From a virus, in IMG/VR virus record IMGVR_UViG_3300049847_000321, positions 4,754-68,753 of that record: a stretch of 64,000 nt of DNA. One strand, 5' to 3'. Of the stretch, positions 4,617-61,556 are shown piece after piece (the stretch's first letter is position 1; every line of letters starts with the position of its first letter). Both the position numbers and the translations under genes were made by a program. The notes under the pieces were generated by a model. It saw only the letters and a list, made by a program, of their open reading frames with translations. It ran no database searches and was not told the DNA's origin.

Positions 4617-4817
4617 ATGACCATGAATAAAATAGACCTTATCAACATTATTGAAGATTTGGAAGATTGGGGAAACGAAGTTATTGACAAATACCTTTCC
4701 GGATCAGGAGATTGTTTCTGTAAAGAAGGTAGATACATTTGTGAAAATCACACCCTAATTAATAGATTCCTTGATATTATAAAAAGAGGAGAAAGTAAAT
4801 GCCAAGAACCTGGATAG
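4617..4817 (+). CDS. Hypothetical protein
   Basis: GGAG upstream of ATG 4617; fills the gap in the operon. Confidence 0.55.
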   Translation: MTMNKIDLINIIEDLEDWGNEVIDKYLSGSGDCFCKEGRYICENHTLINRFLDIIKRGESKCQEPG

Positions 4818-5725: not shown

Positions 5726-6376
5726 ATGAAACTAATACCACTAGCCCTTCTACGAAAGAAAGGTGCCTGCCAAAAGCAACTATCTCTGATAGAAAACGAA
5801 TGGCCTAGCGGCATACCGCTTACGCAAGAGACTGCCGAAAGGTTCCTAGAACTGGAACTTGATATTGACTGGGTAGTAGAGAACCTGCTGACTGAGCAAG
5901 AGCAGACAGAATGCGAAAGGATTCAACAACCTGCAAAAGCAGAATACGAAAGGATCGAACAACCTGCATTAGCAGAATACGAAAGGATCACACAACCTGC
6001 ATTAGCAGAATACGAAAGGATCACACAACCTGCAAAAGCAGAATACTTAAGGATCGAACAACCTGCATATGCAGAATACTTAAGGATCGAACAACTTGCA
6101 TTAGTAGAATACTTAAGGATTCAACAACCTGCAAAAGCAGAATACAATAGGATTCAACAACTTGCATCAGCAGAATACAAAAGGATCGAACAACCTGCAT
6201 GGGCAGAATACTTAAGGATTCAACAACCTGCATTAGCAGAATACAAAAGGATTCAACAACCTGCATTAGCAGAATACTTCAGGATTAAACAACCTGCATT
6301 AGCAGAATACAAAAGGAAGAAAGTCATGGCTATTCTGGAACTACTTCTCAAACGAAAGGAAGAAAACGGACAATGA
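5726..6376 (+). CDS. 11-aa repeat cassette protein, copy 1 (12 repeats)
   Basis: 60-aa head + 12 x (AEYxRIxQPAx) + AEYKRKKVMAILELLLKRKEENGQ. Left flank TAAGGAGACCAAGTAATG. Confidence 0.85.
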   Translation: MKLIPLALLRKKGACQKQLSLIENEWPSGIPLTQETAERFLELELDIDWVVENLLTEQEQTECERIQQPAKAEYERIEQPALAEYERITQPALAEYERITQPAKAEYLRIEQPAYAEYLRIEQLALVEYLRIQQPAKAEYNRIQQLASAEYKRIEQPAWAEYLRIQQPALAEYKRIQQPALAEYFRIKQPALAEYKRKKVMAILELLLKRKEENGQ

Positions 6377-43452: not shown

Positions 43453-43893
43453 TCAGTCCGAAGAATCAACCTGTTCAACTAGACCGCACTTAGAACATTT
43501 ATACTGGTTCCAGCAGTTACCTAATCTCGCTATGTGTTCCATCTTATGAACACAACCAACGCGATACACTTTGACTTCCTCAGAGCATGTTCCAATGTAC
43601 TCGAACAGGAACGCCTTTTCGTGGAAGATTATCAGCGTCAAGCCGCTGACGTATTTGCTACCTGGCATCTTTGCCTGGAGATACACTTCGAGTTCCGGCG
43701 AGTACATTGACCTCATGTGCCAGTATTCCTTAAGCGGAACCTCAGTGACACACGATTTGGATACACATTGATGACCTTCTTTGCTTATCAATTTGAGGTT
43801 CAGCCAAGGGAACCTTTTATTGAGATACTTCAGGTCGTCTTGAGTCTCTTTTCGGATTGCATGATCGTCGTGTGCCAGTTTGTTAATCAACAT
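43453..43893 (-). CDS. Hypothetical protein with C-terminal Zn ribbon
   Basis: ATG overlaps the cassette copy 2 stop (TGATG); C-terminal CVH...KCSKCG. Confidence 0.65.
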   Translation of the reverse strand: MLINKLAHDDHAIRKETQDDLKYLNKRFPWLNLKLISKEGHQCVSKSCVTEVPLKEYWHMRSMYSPELEVYLQAKMPGSKYVSGLTLIIFHEKAFLFEYIGTCSEEVKVYRVGCVHKMEHIARLGNCWNQYKCSKCGLVEQVDSSD

Positions 43894-44273
43894 CACTTGG
43901 TCTCCTTTCGTTTGAGAAGTAGTTCCAGAATAGCCATGACTTTCTTCCTTAAGTATTCTGCTAATGCAGGTTGTTTGATCCCTAAGTATTCTGCCCATGC
44001 AGGTTGTATGATCCTTTTGTATTCTGCTAATGCAGGTTGTATGATCCTTTCGTATTCTGCTTTTGCAAGTTGTTGAATCCTTTCGTATTCTATCTGCTCT
44101 TGCTCAGTCAGCAGGTTCTCTACTACCCAGTCAATATTAAGTTCCAATTCTAGGAACCTTTCGGCAGTCGCTTTCGTAAGCGGTATGCCGCTAGGCCATT
44201 CGCTTTCTACCAGAGACAGCTGCTTTTGGCAGGCACGTTTCTTTCGTAGAAGGTCTAGTGGTATGATCTTCAT
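43893..44273 (-). CDS. 11-aa repeat cassette protein, copy 2 (4 repeats)
   Basis: 126 aa; flanked by a 30-bp direct repeat with 2 mismatches (43891-43920 and 44271-44300). Confidence 0.85.
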   Translation of the reverse strand: MKIIPLDLLRKKRACQKQLSLVESEWPSGIPLTKATAERFLELELNIDWVVENLLTEQEQIEYERIQQLAKAEYERIIQPALAEYKRIIQPAWAEYLGIKQPALAEYLRKKVMAILELLLKRKETK

Positions 44274-45630: not shown

Positions 45631-45939
45631 TTAGAGTTGGATGTCATCACATATGTCACGGACAAAGTTGATTTCGTCCATTGTTGTTTGTTCCGCTTCA
45701 TCTTCCGACATACTATACTCTCCGACGAGAGACGTAATCACATCCTGTAGCCCGTGCCAAGCACGAAGCCACTTCGATCCTTTATGGCGACCGGCCATCG
45801 CTTCTTGACCAAGATTCTCTAAAGCACCAATACACAATCTCTGTGCAGCTTGGTTGCCTTTCATGCACTCTCGGTAAAGATCATTCATTGAATGGAACTT
45901 GCGAAGTTTGCTTTTGGTAAGTCGTTTATATTTGGTCAT
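45631..45939 (-). CDS. Hypothetical protein
   Basis: ATG overlaps the cassette copy 3 stop (TGATG). Confidence 0.6.
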   Translation of the reverse strand: MTKYKRLTKSKLRKFHSMNDLYRECMKGNQAAQRLCIGALENLGQEAMAGRHKGSKWLRAWHGLQDVITSLVGEYSMSEDEAEQTTMDEINFVRDICDDIQL

Positions 45940-46322
45940 CACTTAGTCTCCTTTCGTTTGAGAAGTAGTTTCAAAATAGCCATGACTAACTTCCTTTTGT
46001 ATTCTGCATATGCAGGTTGTGCGATCCTTTTGTATTCTGCATATGCAGATTTTTGGCAGTCGTTTTCGTATTTTGCCCATGCAGGTTTTATGATCCTTAA
46101 GTATTCTGCTGATGCAGGCTGTGCGATCCTTTCGTATTCTACCTGCTCTTGCTCAGTTAGTAGGTTGTTCGCTACCCACTCAATATCAAGTTCCAATTTT
46201 AGGAACCTTTCGGCAGTCTCTTGCGTAAGCGGTATGCCTTGAGGCCATTCGCTTTCTACCAGAGACAGTTGCTCTTGGCAGGCACGTTTCTTTCGTAGAA
46301 GGGCTAGAGGTATGATCTTCAT
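45939..46322 (-). CDS. 11-aa repeat cassette protein, copy 3 (4 repeats, one degenerate)
   Basis: 127 aa; flanks TAAGGAGACCAAGTAATG and AAGGAGACTAAGTGATG. Confidence 0.85.
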   Translation of the reverse strand: MKIIPLALLRKKRACQEQLSLVESEWPQGIPLTQETAERFLKLELDIEWVANNLLTEQEQVEYERIAQPASAEYLRIIKPAWAKYENDCQKSAYAEYKRIAQPAYAEYKRKLVMAILKLLLKRKETK

Positions 46323-51837: not shown

Positions 51838-51929
51838 TAACCAAACTTCGCCCATTTCTCTAACCAGGCCAATGCCATGAAAACTACCGGCAAGAAAGCT
51901 GTAACCAACAAGAAAGTGAGAACACGAAA

Positions 51930-52268
51930 ATGCACACGACGAAAACCCTCGATCACCGTCCACAATTCTGCACCTGCAGGACCTGCCGTCAAGTCTACCT
52001 CACGGTCGAAGCCAACTCGTGCATCCGGGGCTACTGTTCCATGCACTGTCAAAACGAAAAAGCAACGTATCTCGGATGGCGAAAAGAAACTGCCTTCCAA
52101 AAAGGCAGCACACAATACAATATCCTCACAAAAGCCAACGAAATCGGAGACATTGAAGCCCCGCCCTATCTCATACCAAAGTCTCAAGAGGACATTAACC
52201 AGATGCGAAAAATGCTTCCGCACATTTTCGGAGTCGGAGCTGAGCAAGAGCTATTTGCCTCAACCTGA
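51930..52268 (+). CDS. Probable Zn-finger protein nested in the long NusG ORF frame
   Basis: CRTC...GYCSMHC motif; normal globular composition. Confidence 0.55.
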   Translation: MHTTKTLDHRPQFCTCRTCRQVYLTVEANSCIRGYCSMHCQNEKATYLGWRKETAFQKGSTQYNILTKANEIGDIEAPPYLIPKSQEDINQMRKMLPHIFGVGAEQELFAST

Positions 52269-52296
52269 CGACGAAAAACTCTGCCTCCGATGTTCA

Positions 52297-53043
52297 ATGC
52301 GATTCTACGTCCTCTACTGTATGCCACCTCAGCGTCAATACGTTGACAACACTGAGGAGATACGCAGAGATTGCGTAGACGCCGGATTCCCCGACTTGGC
52401 GATGCCGACTGTACAATGGGCGGCTGTTATCGGAGGCGAGAATAAAACGAGGACTAGGCTGTTAAAAATGGCCGGTGAACGTGGCATACGTCACTTGATC
52501 GGCAAGATCATCATTCCTAAACACGAGGAGGTTGTATGGCGACACGGGATGCGTAGAGTATCCAAGAAAAAGAGCTTTCCTGGCTATCTGATTATTCAGA
52601 TGGTGTTCAACGACGACACCGATCATCTGATTAACGATTGCCCAGGCGCAGTAGGTTTACTGCCGTTTAGACCTGACTTCTATCACAAAGACATTCTGAC
52701 CAAGAAAGTCTGGAAACGTCAGGCTACCGAGCATGAATTGAAACGAATGGAAAATGAAGAAGGATCAACCCTTCTAATTTGGAAACCTACTTCACTCGAA
52801 AGTGAAGAAGCCGCTTTACTCTTACTGAGGAATGGCATGGAAAACGTGGCCACTAGGACACAGACACCTGACATTGAAGTCGGGCAGTTTGTCAAGATTC
52901 AGCATGGAGCGTTCAAAGACACGGCAGCTAAAGTGCTGGAATTGATACAGAGCAACAAAGAACCTCAATTACGACTAGAAGTAACCCTTCTAGGCACGCT
53001 TGTTCCAATCACTTTGCCAGTGTGGCAAGTGGCATCTATTTAA
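52297..53043 (+). CDS. nusG: NusG-family transcription antitermination factor (NGN + KOW)
   Basis: MRFYVL, IGKIIIPKHEEV...KKKSFPGYLIIQM, PGAVGL, IEVGQFVKIQHGAFKD..AKV. The frame is also open upstream to 51877. Confidence 0.85.
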   Translation: MRFYVLYCMPPQRQYVDNTEEIRRDCVDAGFPDLAMPTVQWAAVIGGENKTRTRLLKMAGERGIRHLIGKIIIPKHEEVVWRHGMRRVSKKKSFPGYLIIQMVFNDDTDHLINDCPGAVGLLPFRPDFYHKDILTKKVWKRQATEHELKRMENEEGSTLLIWKPTSLESEEAALLLLRNGMENVATRTQTPDIEVGQFVKIQHGAFKDTAAKVLELIQSNKEPQLRLEVTLLGTLVPITLPVWQVASI

Positions 53044-53059
53044 GAAAGGAAACCAAGCA

Positions 53060-53770
53060 ATGAAGATCATACCACTAGACCTTCTACGAAAGAAAGGTGC
53101 CTGCCAAAAGCAGCTGTCTCTGGTAGAAAGCGAATGGCCTCAAGGCATACCGCTTACAAAAGCAACTGCCGAAAGGTTCCTAAAATTGGAACTTGATATT
53201 GACTGGGTAGCAGAGAATCTGCTGACTGAGCAAGAGCAGATAGAATACTTAAGGATCATACAACCTGCATGGGCAGAATACTTAAGGATCAAACAACCTG
53301 CATTAGCAGAATACGAAAGGATCGAACAACCTGCAAGGGCAGAATACAAAAGGATCGAACAACTTGCAAAAGCAGAATACGAAAGGATCATACAACCTGC
53401 ACTAGCAGAATACGAAAGGATCGAACAACCTGCATGGGCAGAATACAAAAGGATTCAACAACCTGCATATGCAGAATACAAAAGGATTCAACAACCTGCA
53501 TTAGCAGAATACAAAAGGATCATACAACCTGCATGGGCAGAATACGAAAGGATCGAACAACCTGCATATGCAGAATACAAAAGGATCCAACAACCTGCAT
53601 ATGCAGAATACAAAAGGATCGAACAACCTGCATATGCAGAATACAAAAGGAGCATAGCACCTGCATCAGCAGAATACAATAGGATCAAACAACTTGCAAG
53701 GGCAGAATACGAAAGGAAGAAAGTCATGGCTATTCTGGAACTACTCCTTAAGCGAAAGGAGACCAAGTGA
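53060..53770 (+). CDS. 11-aa repeat cassette protein, copy 4 (14 repeats)
   Basis: 236 aa; flanks AAGGAAACCAAGCAATG and AAGGAGACCAAGTGATG. Confidence 0.85.
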   Translation: MKIIPLDLLRKKGACQKQLSLVESEWPQGIPLTKATAERFLKLELDIDWVAENLLTEQEQIEYLRIIQPAWAEYLRIKQPALAEYERIEQPARAEYKRIEQLAKAEYERIIQPALAEYERIEQPAWAEYKRIQQPAYAEYKRIQQPALAEYKRIIQPAWAEYERIEQPAYAEYKRIQQPAYAEYKRIEQPAYAEYKRSIAPASAEYNRIKQLARAEYERKKVMAILELLLKRKETK

Positions 53771-59283: not shown

Positions 59284-60466
59284 TATCCAAGACTTGTTTA
59301 CAGAAAACAAAATAACCACTACTGAAGCATTGCTTCTTTGGACAATCGACAATATGGTTAGAAGCAACTTTACTGGTTGTTGGGCATCAAACAAATTTCT
59401 TGGTAAGAGTGTTAAGGTTAAACAAAAACGACACGTTCAGAAAATGCTTAGACACCTTCAAGATTTAGGACTCATCCGTGTTGTTTCAAGGACATCAAAT
59501 TCAAGAGTCTTTGCAACCAAATGGAATGACATTGAAGATGATGACTTGGTGACGAAAACATCAAGTAGTGAACAATTGTACAGAGGGGATGTCTTTAACC
59601 ACACGGGGGGGATGCTTTATAAGACATCCCCCTCTTTATTACTACGTAATAAAGATATAAAGAGTAATACTGTCGGCTCTACCGAGCCGACGAAAAGAAA
59701 GAAGAAAAATGGAGAAAAGCCTATGCCAGAATGGAGCAACTTTAACAGCGTCTCCAGTCAAATGAAAGAGTCACCATCAACCTTCGACTTAGAATGCGCC
59801 AAACGACTGGCACATGTAGTTCAAGCCTCCAGAAAGGTTATGCGCAAATTTCAAACCTCTAAGTGGGCTACCAGCTTTCGAGACTTGCGACTGATCGACA
59901 AGGTAGAAGAAAAGCGAATCACCAAGGTTCTCGACTGGTACTGCGAGCATATGGGTGAAGACTACGTACCTCAAGCCTTCTCAGGCGAAGGTTTCAGAAG
60001 TAAGTGGCTCCAACTAGAAGCCGGGATGTTGCGCGATTTGGGACCAGAAGTTGAGGTGAGTCTTTCGGCTTTGGAGATCGTCAAGAAACTGAACCTGTAT
60101 AAGTGGCCAAAAGGTTCCGAAAAGCAGTTACCGCAGTTTGTTCAAATCAGCATGGATAATTACAACGATTTCGGTTTTGCAGTTGATGACTACAAAGGTA
60201 GATTGATTGTGACTAGATCAGAAATGAAAATGGATGAATTGCTTCACTTCCTATTGAAGCGAGAAGGCTTGCTGCCAACTAAATGGTTTATTGAGCATTG
60301 GTGGAAGCAAGTTCGTGAGCAAGTTTTCAATTGGGAAGAGTTTTCAGGTGATTTGAAATCGTACATTTTCAAACCAACACACAAGATGTTTCAAAGGTAT
60401 ATGCGGGGCAAAATTCAACCGAATCTGTATTCACAATGGGACCGCCTAATGAAGGAAACCAAGTAA
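59255..60466 (+). CDS. Replication initiator (N-terminal wHTH, lambda O-like central domain)
   Basis: WASNKFLG...VQKMLRHLQDLGLI; KWATSFRDLRLID...VLDWYC...FRSKWLQLE resembles the lambda O C-terminal domain. Confidence 0.7.
   Translation: MARVKGIALDIQDLFTENKITTTEALLLWTIDNMVRSNFTGCWASNKFLGKSVKVKQKRHVQKMLRHLQDLGLIRVVSRTSNSRVFATKWNDIEDDDLVTKTSSSEQLYRGDVFNHTGGMLYKTSPSLLLRNKDIKSNTVGSTEPTKRKKKNGEKPMPEWSNFNSVSSQMKESPSTFDLECAKRLAHVVQASRKVMRKFQTSKWATSFRDLRLIDKVEEKRITKVLDWYCEHMGEDYVPQAFSGEGFRSKWLQLEAGMLRDLGPEVEVSLSALEIVKKLNLYKWPKGSEKQLPQFVQISMDNYNDFGFAVDDYKGRLIVTRSEMKMDELLHFLLKREGLLPTKWFIEHWWKQVREQVFNWEEFSGDLKSYIFKPTHKMFQRYMRGKIQPNLYSQWDRLMKETK
59583..59670. promoter_or_regulatory. Candidate replication origin inside the initiator gene
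   Basis: GGGGATG(T)CTT twice direct and once inverted, followed by an AT-rich TTTATTAC-tac-GTAATAAA palindrome. Confidence 0.45.
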
Positions 60467-61044
60467 TGAAACTAATACCACTAGACCTTCTACGAAAGAA
60501 AGGTGCCTGCCAAAAGCAACTTTCTTTGGTAGAAAGCGAATGGCCTAGCGGCATACCGCTTACGAAAGCGACTGCCGAAAGGTTCCTAGAACTGGAACTT
60601 GATATTGACTGGGTAGTAGAGAACCTGCTAACTCAGCAAGAGCAGGTAGAATACAAAAGGATCGAACAACCTGCATATGCAGAATACAAAAGGATCGAAC
60701 AACCTGCATATGCAGAATACAAAAGGATCAAACAACCTGCATATGCAGAATACAAAAGGATCGAACAACCTGCATATGCAGAATACGAAAGGATCAAACA
60801 ACCTGCATTAGCAGAATACTTAAGGATCGAACAACCTGCATGGGCAGAATACGAAAGGATCGAACAACTTGCATATGCAGAATACGAAAGGATCGAACAA
60901 CCTGCATTAGCAGAATACAAAAGGATCAAACAACCTGCATATGCAGAATACGAAAGGATCGAACAACCTGCATTAGCAGAATACAAAAGGAAGAAAGTCA
61001 TGGCTATTCTGGAACTACTTCTCAAACGAAAGGAGACCGAGTAA
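60466..61044 (+). CDS. 11-aa repeat cassette protein, copy 5 (10 repeats)
   Basis: 192 aa; flanks AAGGAAACCAAGTAATG and AAGGAGACCGAGTAATG. Confidence 0.85.
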   Translation: MKLIPLDLLRKKGACQKQLSLVESEWPSGIPLTKATAERFLELELDIDWVVENLLTQQEQVEYKRIEQPAYAEYKRIEQPAYAEYKRIKQPAYAEYKRIEQPAYAEYERIKQPALAEYLRIEQPAWAEYERIEQLAYAEYERIEQPALAEYKRIKQPAYAEYERIEQPALAEYKRKKVMAILELLLKRKETE

Positions 61045-61556
61045 TGAAGATCATACCTCTAGCCCTTCTACGAAAGAAAGGTGCCTGCCAAAAGCAACTT
61101 TCTTTGGTAGAAAGCGAATGGCCTAGCGGCATACCGCTTACGAAAGCGACTGCCGAAAGGTTCCTAAAATTGGAACTTGATATTGAGTGGGTAGCGAACA
61201 ACCTACTAACTGAGCAAGAGCAGGTAGAATACGAAAGGATCGCACAGCCTGCATCAGCAGAATACTTAAGGATCGAACAACCTGCATATGCAGAATACGA
61301 AAGGATCGAACAACTTGCGAGGGCAGAATACGAAAGGATCAAACAACCTGCATATGCAGAATACTTAAGGATTCAACAACCTGCATTAGCAGAATACGAA
61401 AGGATCAAACAACTTGCATTAGCAGAATACTTAAGGATCGAACAACTTGCATATGCAGAATACGAAAGGATCAAACAACCTGCATCAGCAGAATACAAAA
61501 GGAAGAAAGTCATGGCTATTCTGGAACTACTTCTCAAACAAAAGGAAACCAAGTGA
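61044..61556 (+). CDS. 11-aa repeat cassette protein, copy 6 (8 repeats), tandem with copy 5
   Basis: 170 aa; shares its left junction with copy 5; right flank AAGGAAACCAAGTGATG. Confidence 0.85.
   Translation: MKIIPLALLRKKGACQKQLSLVESEWPSGIPLTKATAERFLKLELDIEWVANNLLTEQEQVEYERIAQPASAEYLRIEQPAYAEYERIEQLARAEYERIKQPAYAEYLRIQQPALAEYERIKQLALAEYLRIEQLAYAEYERIKQPASAEYKRKKVMAILELLLKQKETK

Follow-up and report, generated by a model that had tools for sequence, protein, structure and literature searches.

The 236-residue protein P0001 is encoded on the plus strand (53060–53770) of a 64,000-nucleotide stretch of viral DNA, here called the window, which spans positions 4,754 to 68,753 of the IMG/VR virus record IMGVR_UViG_3300049847_000321. 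The window is part of a 77,099-bp genome with an estimated completeness of 95%. P0001 consists of a small head followed by tandem 11-residue repeats of the form AEYxRIxQPAx, and the variation among these repeats is the subject of this analysis. The likely start codon is the ATG at 53060, and the TGA stop (53768–53770) overlaps the ATG of the next gene as TGATG. A Shine-Dalgarno-like element, AAAGGAAA, read from the sequence, lies 8 nt 5′ of the start (53045–53052, plus strand) and after the stop codon of a NusG-like gene (53041–53043). Structure prediction with AlphaFold2 (AF2) and alignment delimited a small alpha/beta head domain at residues 1–60 (53060–53239, plus strand) with an invariant Ala14-Cys15. 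Fourteen full 33-bp units follow on the same strand (53240–53701), in which codons 4, 7 and 11 are variable and codon 9 encodes Pro or Leu. A partial fifteenth unit and a conserved amphipathic tail, AEYERKKVMAILELLLKRKETK, complete the gene (53702–53767, plus strand). Tandem Repeats Finder returned a 33-bp array at 53242–53717 (14.4 copies, 86% matches), in frame in the open reading frame 53060–53770. For the same array, a 99-bp (three-unit) period scored 665 versus 595 for the 33-bp period; a three-unit pattern in the position-11 residues was only faint.

Eight intact paralogs of the repeat gene were found in the genome, six within the window and two outside it, spread over early and late operons. 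Besides P0001, the window holds paralogs B (5726–6376, plus strand; 12 full units), C (43893–44273, minus strand; four full units, part of P0003 and also modelled as a hairpin) and D (45939–46322, minus strand). Paralog D has four units, the third of which is degenerate (12 residues, containing ENDCQKS) and is the predicted turn unit. Paralog F (60466–61044, plus strand; 10 full units) is directly adjoined by paralog G (61044–61556, plus strand; eight full units). The two paralogs outside the window, at genome coordinates 406–918 and 74736–75446, carry eight and 14 full units, respectively, giving counts of 8, 12, 4, 4, 14, 10, 8 and 14 in genome order. The amphipathic tail AEYERKKVMAILELLLKRKETK is kept in all eight. 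Two head-plus-repeat paralogs, adjacent or about 1 kb apart, also occur in other phages (L009, 9414–10576; L014, 10001–11629).

Codon variation in the P0001 array fell at a few positions of the unit. Codons 2, 3, 5 and 10 were invariant among its 14 full units, and codons 4, 7 and 11 carried four, four and seven alleles with entropies of 1.69, 1.92 and 2.61 bits, respectively. Pooling 72 full units from the eight paralogs gave 1.82, 2.13 and 2.57 bits at the same positions. Position 6 (0.91 bits) alternates between the synonymous ATC and ATT, the sole common synonymous polymorphism, and position 9 (0.74 bits) between CCT and CTT, that is, Pro and Leu. No remaining position exceeded 0.72 bits, a value that was seen at position 1 and is due to the first units of the arrays; internal units were essentially invariant outside positions 4, 6, 7, 9 and 11. 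Minor alleles made up 18 of 576 observations at the third positions of conserved codons compared to 220 of 648 at sites of the variable codons 4, 7 and 11. At the four-fold-degenerate third positions of codons 1, 9 and 10 there was one minor allele in 216 observations. Five to seven alleles differing by 2–3 nt persist at each of positions 4, 7 and 11.

A first-pass annotation of this DNA had proposed that variation is concentrated at three codons in a frame otherwise fixed at the DNA level, with almost invariant synonymous sites and a limited, shared set of alleles. The concentration at a few codons is borne out by the codon entropies and pooled minor-allele counts, and the shared set by the single-codon alleles common to all eight arrays. 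Codons 4, 7 and 11 were correctly named, but codon 9 is also biallelic (CCT/CTT). Synonymous sites are indeed nearly fixed at the pooled third positions, with codon 6 (ATC/ATT) as the exception. The alleles TTC (position 4) and ACA and GCA (position 7), which had been listed for this array, are absent from 53240–53715 and occur in other paralogs of the window.

Each variant residue is written with one codon everywhere (Lys as AAA, Tyr11 as TAT, Tyr3 as TAC). The variants therefore go back to a few alleles, identical by descent, which were copied and not generated by repeated mutation. Codon usage across the genome is unbiased (GCA provides 29% of Ala, AGG 11% of Arg and ATC 30% of Ile codons), so codon bias is not the cause of the fixed synonymous sites. 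The 72 units comprise 48 distinct combinations of codons 4, 7, 9 and 11, and mutual information among the variable codons was at or near the shuffled null. The only strong linkage joined ATT, the synonymous variant of codon 6, to CAA at the neighboring codon 7. Being near linkage equilibrium, the variants look like a few inherited alleles shuffled by recombination rather than products of repeated mutation. A single multi-unit block is common to different arrays, consisting of three identical units in paralogs A and E. The pairwise synonymous difference (pS) was 0.064 for the conserved repeat codons versus 0.165 for the heads of the same paralogs, and the pairwise non-synonymous difference (pN) at codons 4, 7 and 11 was 0.456.

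These features would be expected if the units are copied and homogenized by frequent in-register recombination or by gene conversion, both inside single arrays and from one of the eight arrays to another. Such exchange would erase synonymous differences and alter unit number (from 4 to 14), while the old single-codon alleles at positions 4, 7, 9 and 11 would be kept and reshuffled instead of homogenized. Their retention would in turn imply selection for heterogeneity on the face that they form. Independent patch repair of heteroduplex mismatches may contribute. A diversity-generating retroelement was rejected as the source of the variation: no RVT_1 match indicative of a reverse transcriptase was found in the 77-kb genome, with control genomes positive, and many A positions of the unit are invariant, unlike under the adenine-specific substitution of such elements.

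The wider family was examined at both the protein and the DNA level. The repeat was matched in at least 494 proteins at E ≤ 0.001 among the candidates scored, and Atlas clusters are 95–100% viral. Among 117 homologs, mean within-protein entropy was 1.1–1.5 bits at positions 4, 7, 9 and 11 and ≤0.46 bits elsewhere. At the DNA level, 62 independent arrays (568 units) were taken from other viral contigs. Position 11 was among the three most variable positions in 60 of the 62 arrays, position 7 in 45, position 9 in 42 and position 4 in 26, and the family-wide order of variability is 11 > 7 > 9 > 4, with position 9 on the opposite flank of the helix. The synonymous share of codon entropy in these arrays was 0.04–0.24 bits, and synonymous drift is present in some older ones, such as L009 and L013. 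An even spread of variation in a larger sample, named beforehand as grounds for rejecting the proposal, was not seen; the 117 homologs and the 62 arrays vary at the same places. Position 11 is Trp, Leu, Tyr or Phe in 808 of about 960 pooled homolog units, and positions 4 and 7 are family-wide mostly Glu, Lys, Gln, Arg or Asn. Exact-pattern scans of viral and metagenome contigs returned no close relatives of the present lineage. Related arrays were often located at contig ends (L026 and L029 on a 176,794-bp contig and L033 and L034 on a 40,166-bp contig, at both ends in each case); assemblies may break at the repeats, or else the genes may be situated in terminal repeats or at circular junctions.

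The same pattern could in principle arise by neutral drift at the protein surface. Positions 4, 7 and 11 would then be unconstrained solvent positions, the fixed synonymous sites would reflect recent expansion or concerted evolution, and no code would be under selection. The residues mostly found at positions 4 and 7 across the family are those expected at exposed helix positions, arrays of the L012 type carry only two alleles per variable site, and near-identical phages carry identical arrays, all of which are in keeping with drift. Homogenization should, however, erase neutral differences at codons 4, 7 and 11 too, yet five to seven alleles that differ by 2–3 nt have persisted. The single-codon alleles common to eight arrays are old and copied, not fresh mutations, and position 11 is restricted to Trp, Leu, Tyr, Phe and Arg throughout the family. 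Drift is thus an account that we take seriously but consider unlikely.

AF2 modelling of the 14-unit protein (43-sequence alignment) gave a mean predicted local distance difference test score (pLDDT) of 95.6, with a head at residues 1–54, a helix at 57–143, a turn at 144–145 and a second helix at 146–231. A four-unit paralog was predicted with the same topology (pLDDT 95.4; helices 57–87 and 92–121, turn 88–91). The array is modelled as continuous helix and the length of the hairpin follows the unit count. In both models the turn falls at positions 6–9 of unit N/2, just before Pro9; in P0001, DSSP applied to the AF2 model assigned it to Gln144-Gln145 (53489–53494, plus strand), positions 7–8 of unit 8 and directly before Pro146. 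In the AF2 model the tail AEYERKKVMAILELLLKRKETK finishes the second arm and lies next to where the first arm begins. Fold searches (Foldseek against the PDB, VIA-align wide, and AlphaFold database clusters) returned only generic helical hairpins, coiled coils and uncharacterized relatives. A homodimer prediction run with controls scored 0.40 against a mark of 0.42 and was not used as evidence either way.

The geometry of the unit was then considered on a helical wheel. Its hydrophobic moment points at Ala10, with Tyr3 at +21 to +26 degrees and Ile6 at −39 to −44 degrees. This direction is stable for helical steps of 98–100 degrees per residue, and the hydrophobic positions recur with an 11-residue period. 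From the moment, positions 7, 11 and 4 are offset by about +55, +90 and +120 degrees and form one contiguous arc beside the seam; Arg5, Ala1 and Gln8 point away from the seam. The three variable positions had been predicted to share one face of the helix, and on a wheel of 98–100 degrees they do occupy a single 66-degree arc. They are not fully exposed, however: the stripe that they form begins 55–59 degrees off the hydrophobic moment and thus runs beside the hairpin seam.

According to these models, the array would form a long antiparallel alpha-helical hairpin whose two arms consist of 11-residue units of three turns each, and the base of the hairpin would be closed by the conserved 60-residue head and the amphipathic tail. 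Conserved Ala10, Tyr3 and Ile6 would make up the seam between the arms, and Glu2 and Arg5 would be the conserved charged residues of each unit. Pro9 would lie off the seam and start the second arm at the turn, and codons 4, 7 and 11 would specify neighboring surface residues along one seam flank. It is established for antiparallel two-helix coiled coils that matching flanks of the paired helices face one side, as in g-g′ and e-e′ pairs. The stripes of both arms should therefore merge, probably into one long face that differs among paralogs. The only degenerate unit of paralog D is its predicted turn unit, which fits a hairpin. Unit number is even in eight of eight paralogs (p ~0.008 for shared parity if the counts are independent), which fits arms that each grow by one unit at a time. 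Leu occurs at position 4 in five of eight turn units versus 11 of 64 units elsewhere, an enrichment with a post hoc p of 0.011.

Some of these observations also suit an explanation intrinsic to the fold, in which heterogeneity at positions 4, 7 and 11 sets the register and turn of the hairpin, prevents mis-pairing or aggregation, and binds nothing else. The stripe flanks the seam and position 11 is mostly hydrophobic; Leu4 is enriched in the turn unit and Pro occupies position 9 in seven of seven canonical turn units; and the even unit number in 8/8 paralogs is likewise compatible. Same-level pairing (i + j = 287 to 291, traced by hand) sets variable residues mostly opposite conserved ones in the partner arm, which removes the need for complementarity between the arms. 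A summed charge/hydrophobic scan of arm pairing was dominated by conserved residues (the Glu2/Arg5 pattern) and gave no signal at the variable positions. Many relatives, L012 among them, are nearly uniform and presumably still fold. That register is the whole purpose of the stripe appears doubtful to us on this evidence.

Amphipathic 11-mers of the apolipoprotein, perilipin, synuclein or late embryogenesis abundant (LEA) type offer another precedent, in which the array would bind lipids or surfaces and the stripe would tune the polar/non-polar boundary. The 11-residue period, the single proline per unit and the amphipathic pattern agree with such a role, as do weak sub-threshold hits of homolog P0035 to Perilipin_2 (E = 0.0013) and Phasin. 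The Perilipin_2 hit reached 18.7 bits versus a cut-off of 30.1, and all such hits were under curated cut-offs. P0001 itself had no Pfam hit at the curated cut-off and none to an apolipoprotein family at E ≤ 0.01. Ala, Tyr and Ile provide a hydrophobic face that is both narrow and weak, and AF2 gives a self-satisfied hairpin with very high confidence. Lipid binding is accordingly rated as improbable.

The first-pass annotation had likened the variable residues to those of transcription activator-like effectors (TALE) and pentatricopeptide repeat (PPR) proteins, such that each unit would read a base or short step of nucleic acid through residues 4, 7 and 11. As in TALE (Xanthomonas/Ralstonia), PPR and PUF proteins, the repeats here show near-identity in their DNA, with differences confined to a few specificity-like codons, a variable copy number and reshuffling by recombination. 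This likeness is formal only; beyond it, an isoelectric point (pI) of 8.8, which makes P0001 mildly basic, and a position among transcription genes (NusG-like, sigma-like) speak for a nucleic-acid reader. The unit, however, spans three turns of a straight helix (~16.5 Å, or ~5 bp), which does not allow base-by-base tracking, and the AF2 models contain neither a helix-turn-helix unit nor a superhelical solenoid. Position 11 is mostly Trp, Leu or Tyr, and the paralogs are spread over early and late operons. A TALE repeat is a two-helix module of 33–35 residues with a hypervariable di-residue at positions 12/13, assembled into a right-handed superhelix that wraps DNA at one repeat per base, whereas the unit here is 11 residues of continuous helix in a straight two-helix hairpin. 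There is no sequence similarity to TALE, PPR or PUF proteins, and the variable residues here flank a coiled-coil seam. With an 11-residue straight-helix unit and no Pfam hit reaching threshold, a code of the TALE/PPR type is not supported and seems scarcely credible; the resemblance is in evolutionary signature only. An acidic DNA mimic was excluded by the pI of 8.8.

Selection could alternatively act on the DNA itself. A CTGC-N4-GCAG inverted repeat is present at most unit junctions of this array, and TAT at codon 11 turns it into a perfect 12-nt palindrome, CTGCATATGCAG. Such palindromes, which had been suggested to promote slippage or template switching, might be selected for that effect and so for copy-number variation. 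Four-base-pair stems occur at nearly all junctions here, and the paralogs differ in unit number (4 to 14). In a single-strand fold of the DNA, neighboring CTGCATATGCAG copies pair with one another, and the array scores better than shuffled versions (z = −7.6). Two of the four stem pairs, however, are given automatically by Ala-x-Ala (GCN...GCN). Third-position complementarity for the 4-bp stem was found in 26 of the 62 arrays versus 21 expected (p = 0.09), and a stem was present at half or more of the junctions in only 22 of 62. Unequal recombination between 33-bp repeats needs no hairpin. The inverted repeat is real, but its proposed role in slippage or template switching is not accompanied by significant conservation and must be regarded as very improbable. 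We read the junction repeat as a by-product of codon choice.

Comparison with characterized helical repeats places the array nearest to two structural classes. It shares with hendecad (11/3) coiled coils, such as the NadA/YadA stalks and Scy/FilP, an 11-residue period over three turns and rod-like helices, and homologs gave weak sub-threshold profile hits to Scy. It differs from them in its predicted intramolecular antiparallel hairpin, the proline in every unit, its small size and its phage origin. The hydrophobic spacing is 3-4-1-3 (positions 3, 6, 10 and 11) versus the canonical a-d-e-h of hendecads. With apolipoprotein, perilipin, alpha-synuclein and LEA 11-mers it shares an amphipathic 11-mer period, a proline punctuation like that of the apoA-I 11/22-mers and a resemblance to hairpin-like lipid-free states; there is no family-level sequence match to these proteins and the hydrophobic face is narrower here. 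By analogy, hendecad coiled coils and apolipoprotein-type 11-mers may be taken as the closest structural counterparts. The closest conceptual precedent appears to be that of the PARCELs, as a horizontally spread amphipathic repeat with variable polar positions. PARCELs are amphipathic repeats that vary in number, conserve their hydrophobic but not their hydrophilic positions, show dyad symmetry at the DNA level, spread horizontally and are associated with mobile elements (PMC2996958). Their unit has 25 residues and is often membrane-targeted (PMC2996958), compared to 11 residues here. The dyad symmetry of the present array is limited to a 4-bp, sometimes 12-nt, junction palindrome that is not conserved. 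P0001 had no Pfam hit at the cut-off and hence no PARCEL/DUF285 family match.

The head domain and its substitutes were also surveyed. The profile of the P0001 head matched 4,481 representative clusters (50% identity) at E ≤ 0.001. Against the PDB it gave nothing below E = 0.28 by sequence. An Atlas structure search placed the head near YdhT_N (PF27195) clusters, with template modelling (TM) scores of 0.69–0.71 over 57 residues, and alignment of the head profile to residues 1–70 of E. coli YdhT with hhalign was weak (E = 0.0015, probability 17%, 31 columns). Viral proteins of the YdhT_N clusters are also fused to MORN-variant or Imm5-like repeats, and in P0122–P0126 a single polypeptide carries the module of head and helical region two to four times in tandem. 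The AEY-type repeat is itself joined to several unrelated heads (P0002, P0004, P0035, P0050, P0026 and P0091). Two types of these start with Met-Cys (MCxFxSW...GHGAI...ECTDFSTP and MCNGFG), and a third carries HVHH...LTEP; the alternative small heads had no Pfam match. The precomputed annotation PF28068 is listed for homologs P0018, P0035, P0056, P0120 and others. Because these have at least three different heads, PF28068 most likely models the repeat.

Database searches gave little further information on function. Scans of the protein and its homologs against Pfam, NCBIfam, PHROGs and PADLOC returned only sub-threshold coiled-coil or low-complexity hits, plus PHROG 8974 (function unknown), and the PADLOC scan gave no match to a defence system. 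BLAST against GenBank phages, queried with the DNA of the region, the complete protein and a head close to the consensus, found no match, although the low-complexity filter may hide repeats. A literature search on phage 11-residue or hendecad repeats and on PF28068 found no paper on the family. The genes around P0001 are phage genes, with the NusG-like gene upstream and genes for DUF932, a sigma-70-like factor and an SNF2 helicase downstream. The NusG-like gene (51877–53043) encodes 388 residues; its NusG N-terminal domain begins at residue 187 and is preceded by a long basic extension rich in Ser, Thr and Lys. The terminase genes lie on the strand opposite to that of P0001, and the large terminase shares no more than 38% identity with its counterparts in isolated phages.

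Considered together, the models and codon statistics make it probable that the arrays are helical hairpins that undergo concerted evolution with retained diversity. An interaction-surface function for the retained diversity is possible, and we propose it tentatively. The combined reading, hairpin arrays homogenized by recombination with diversity kept on one face and perhaps used for protein contact, is assigned a probability of roughly 0.55. The most likely use of the variable face would be protein-protein contact, either self-association or the binding of a host factor by an accessory phage protein. As to the role of the protein as a whole, a diversified protein-interaction face on a variable-length stalk is the most likely one, in which we have modest confidence.

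Several observations weigh against this combined reading. Arrays of near-identical phages from different samples are identical, so there is no sign of fast ongoing diversification or hypermutation. Family-wide, unit number shows no parity bias. Position 9, on the other flank of the helix, is as variable as position 7 in other arrays, and variation is therefore not strictly one-faced. The predominance of Trp, Leu, Tyr and Phe at position 11 fits packing as well as recognition, and the enrichment of Leu4 in turn units suggests that some variable residues serve the fold itself. Burial of positions 4, 7 and 11 was judged by helical geometry. AF2 is prone to modelling long amphipathic helices as folded back, and the true state could be an intermolecular coiled coil.

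A more ambitious proposal is that the eight hairpins constitute a combinatorial repertoire of binders, each paralog recognizing a different partner, which might be a second paralog or a variable host protein, for instance a defence factor. The fixed 11-residue scaffold would then display a 4/7/11 stripe drawn from a small single-codon alphabet and shuffled like cassettes. This extension is speculative and, in our estimation, quite unlikely. If true, it would represent a helical-hairpin counterpart of leucine-rich repeat (LRR) and ankyrin diversification and the first programmable coiled-coil code in a virus.

The repeat family described here is large, mostly viral and almost wholly uncharacterized. 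Its evolutionary signature is unusually clean, in that the repeats are homogenized at the DNA level, three or four helix positions stay diverse, and one phage can carry as many as eight differently patterned copies. Should the stripe only set the hairpin register, the arrays would provide a natural example of how repeat proteins avoid mis-pairing. If instead it is a recognition surface, the hairpin would be a compact, easily engineered protein-binding scaffold of variable length, and its phage-encoded members would form a new class of accessory proteins that may act in host takeover or counter-defence.

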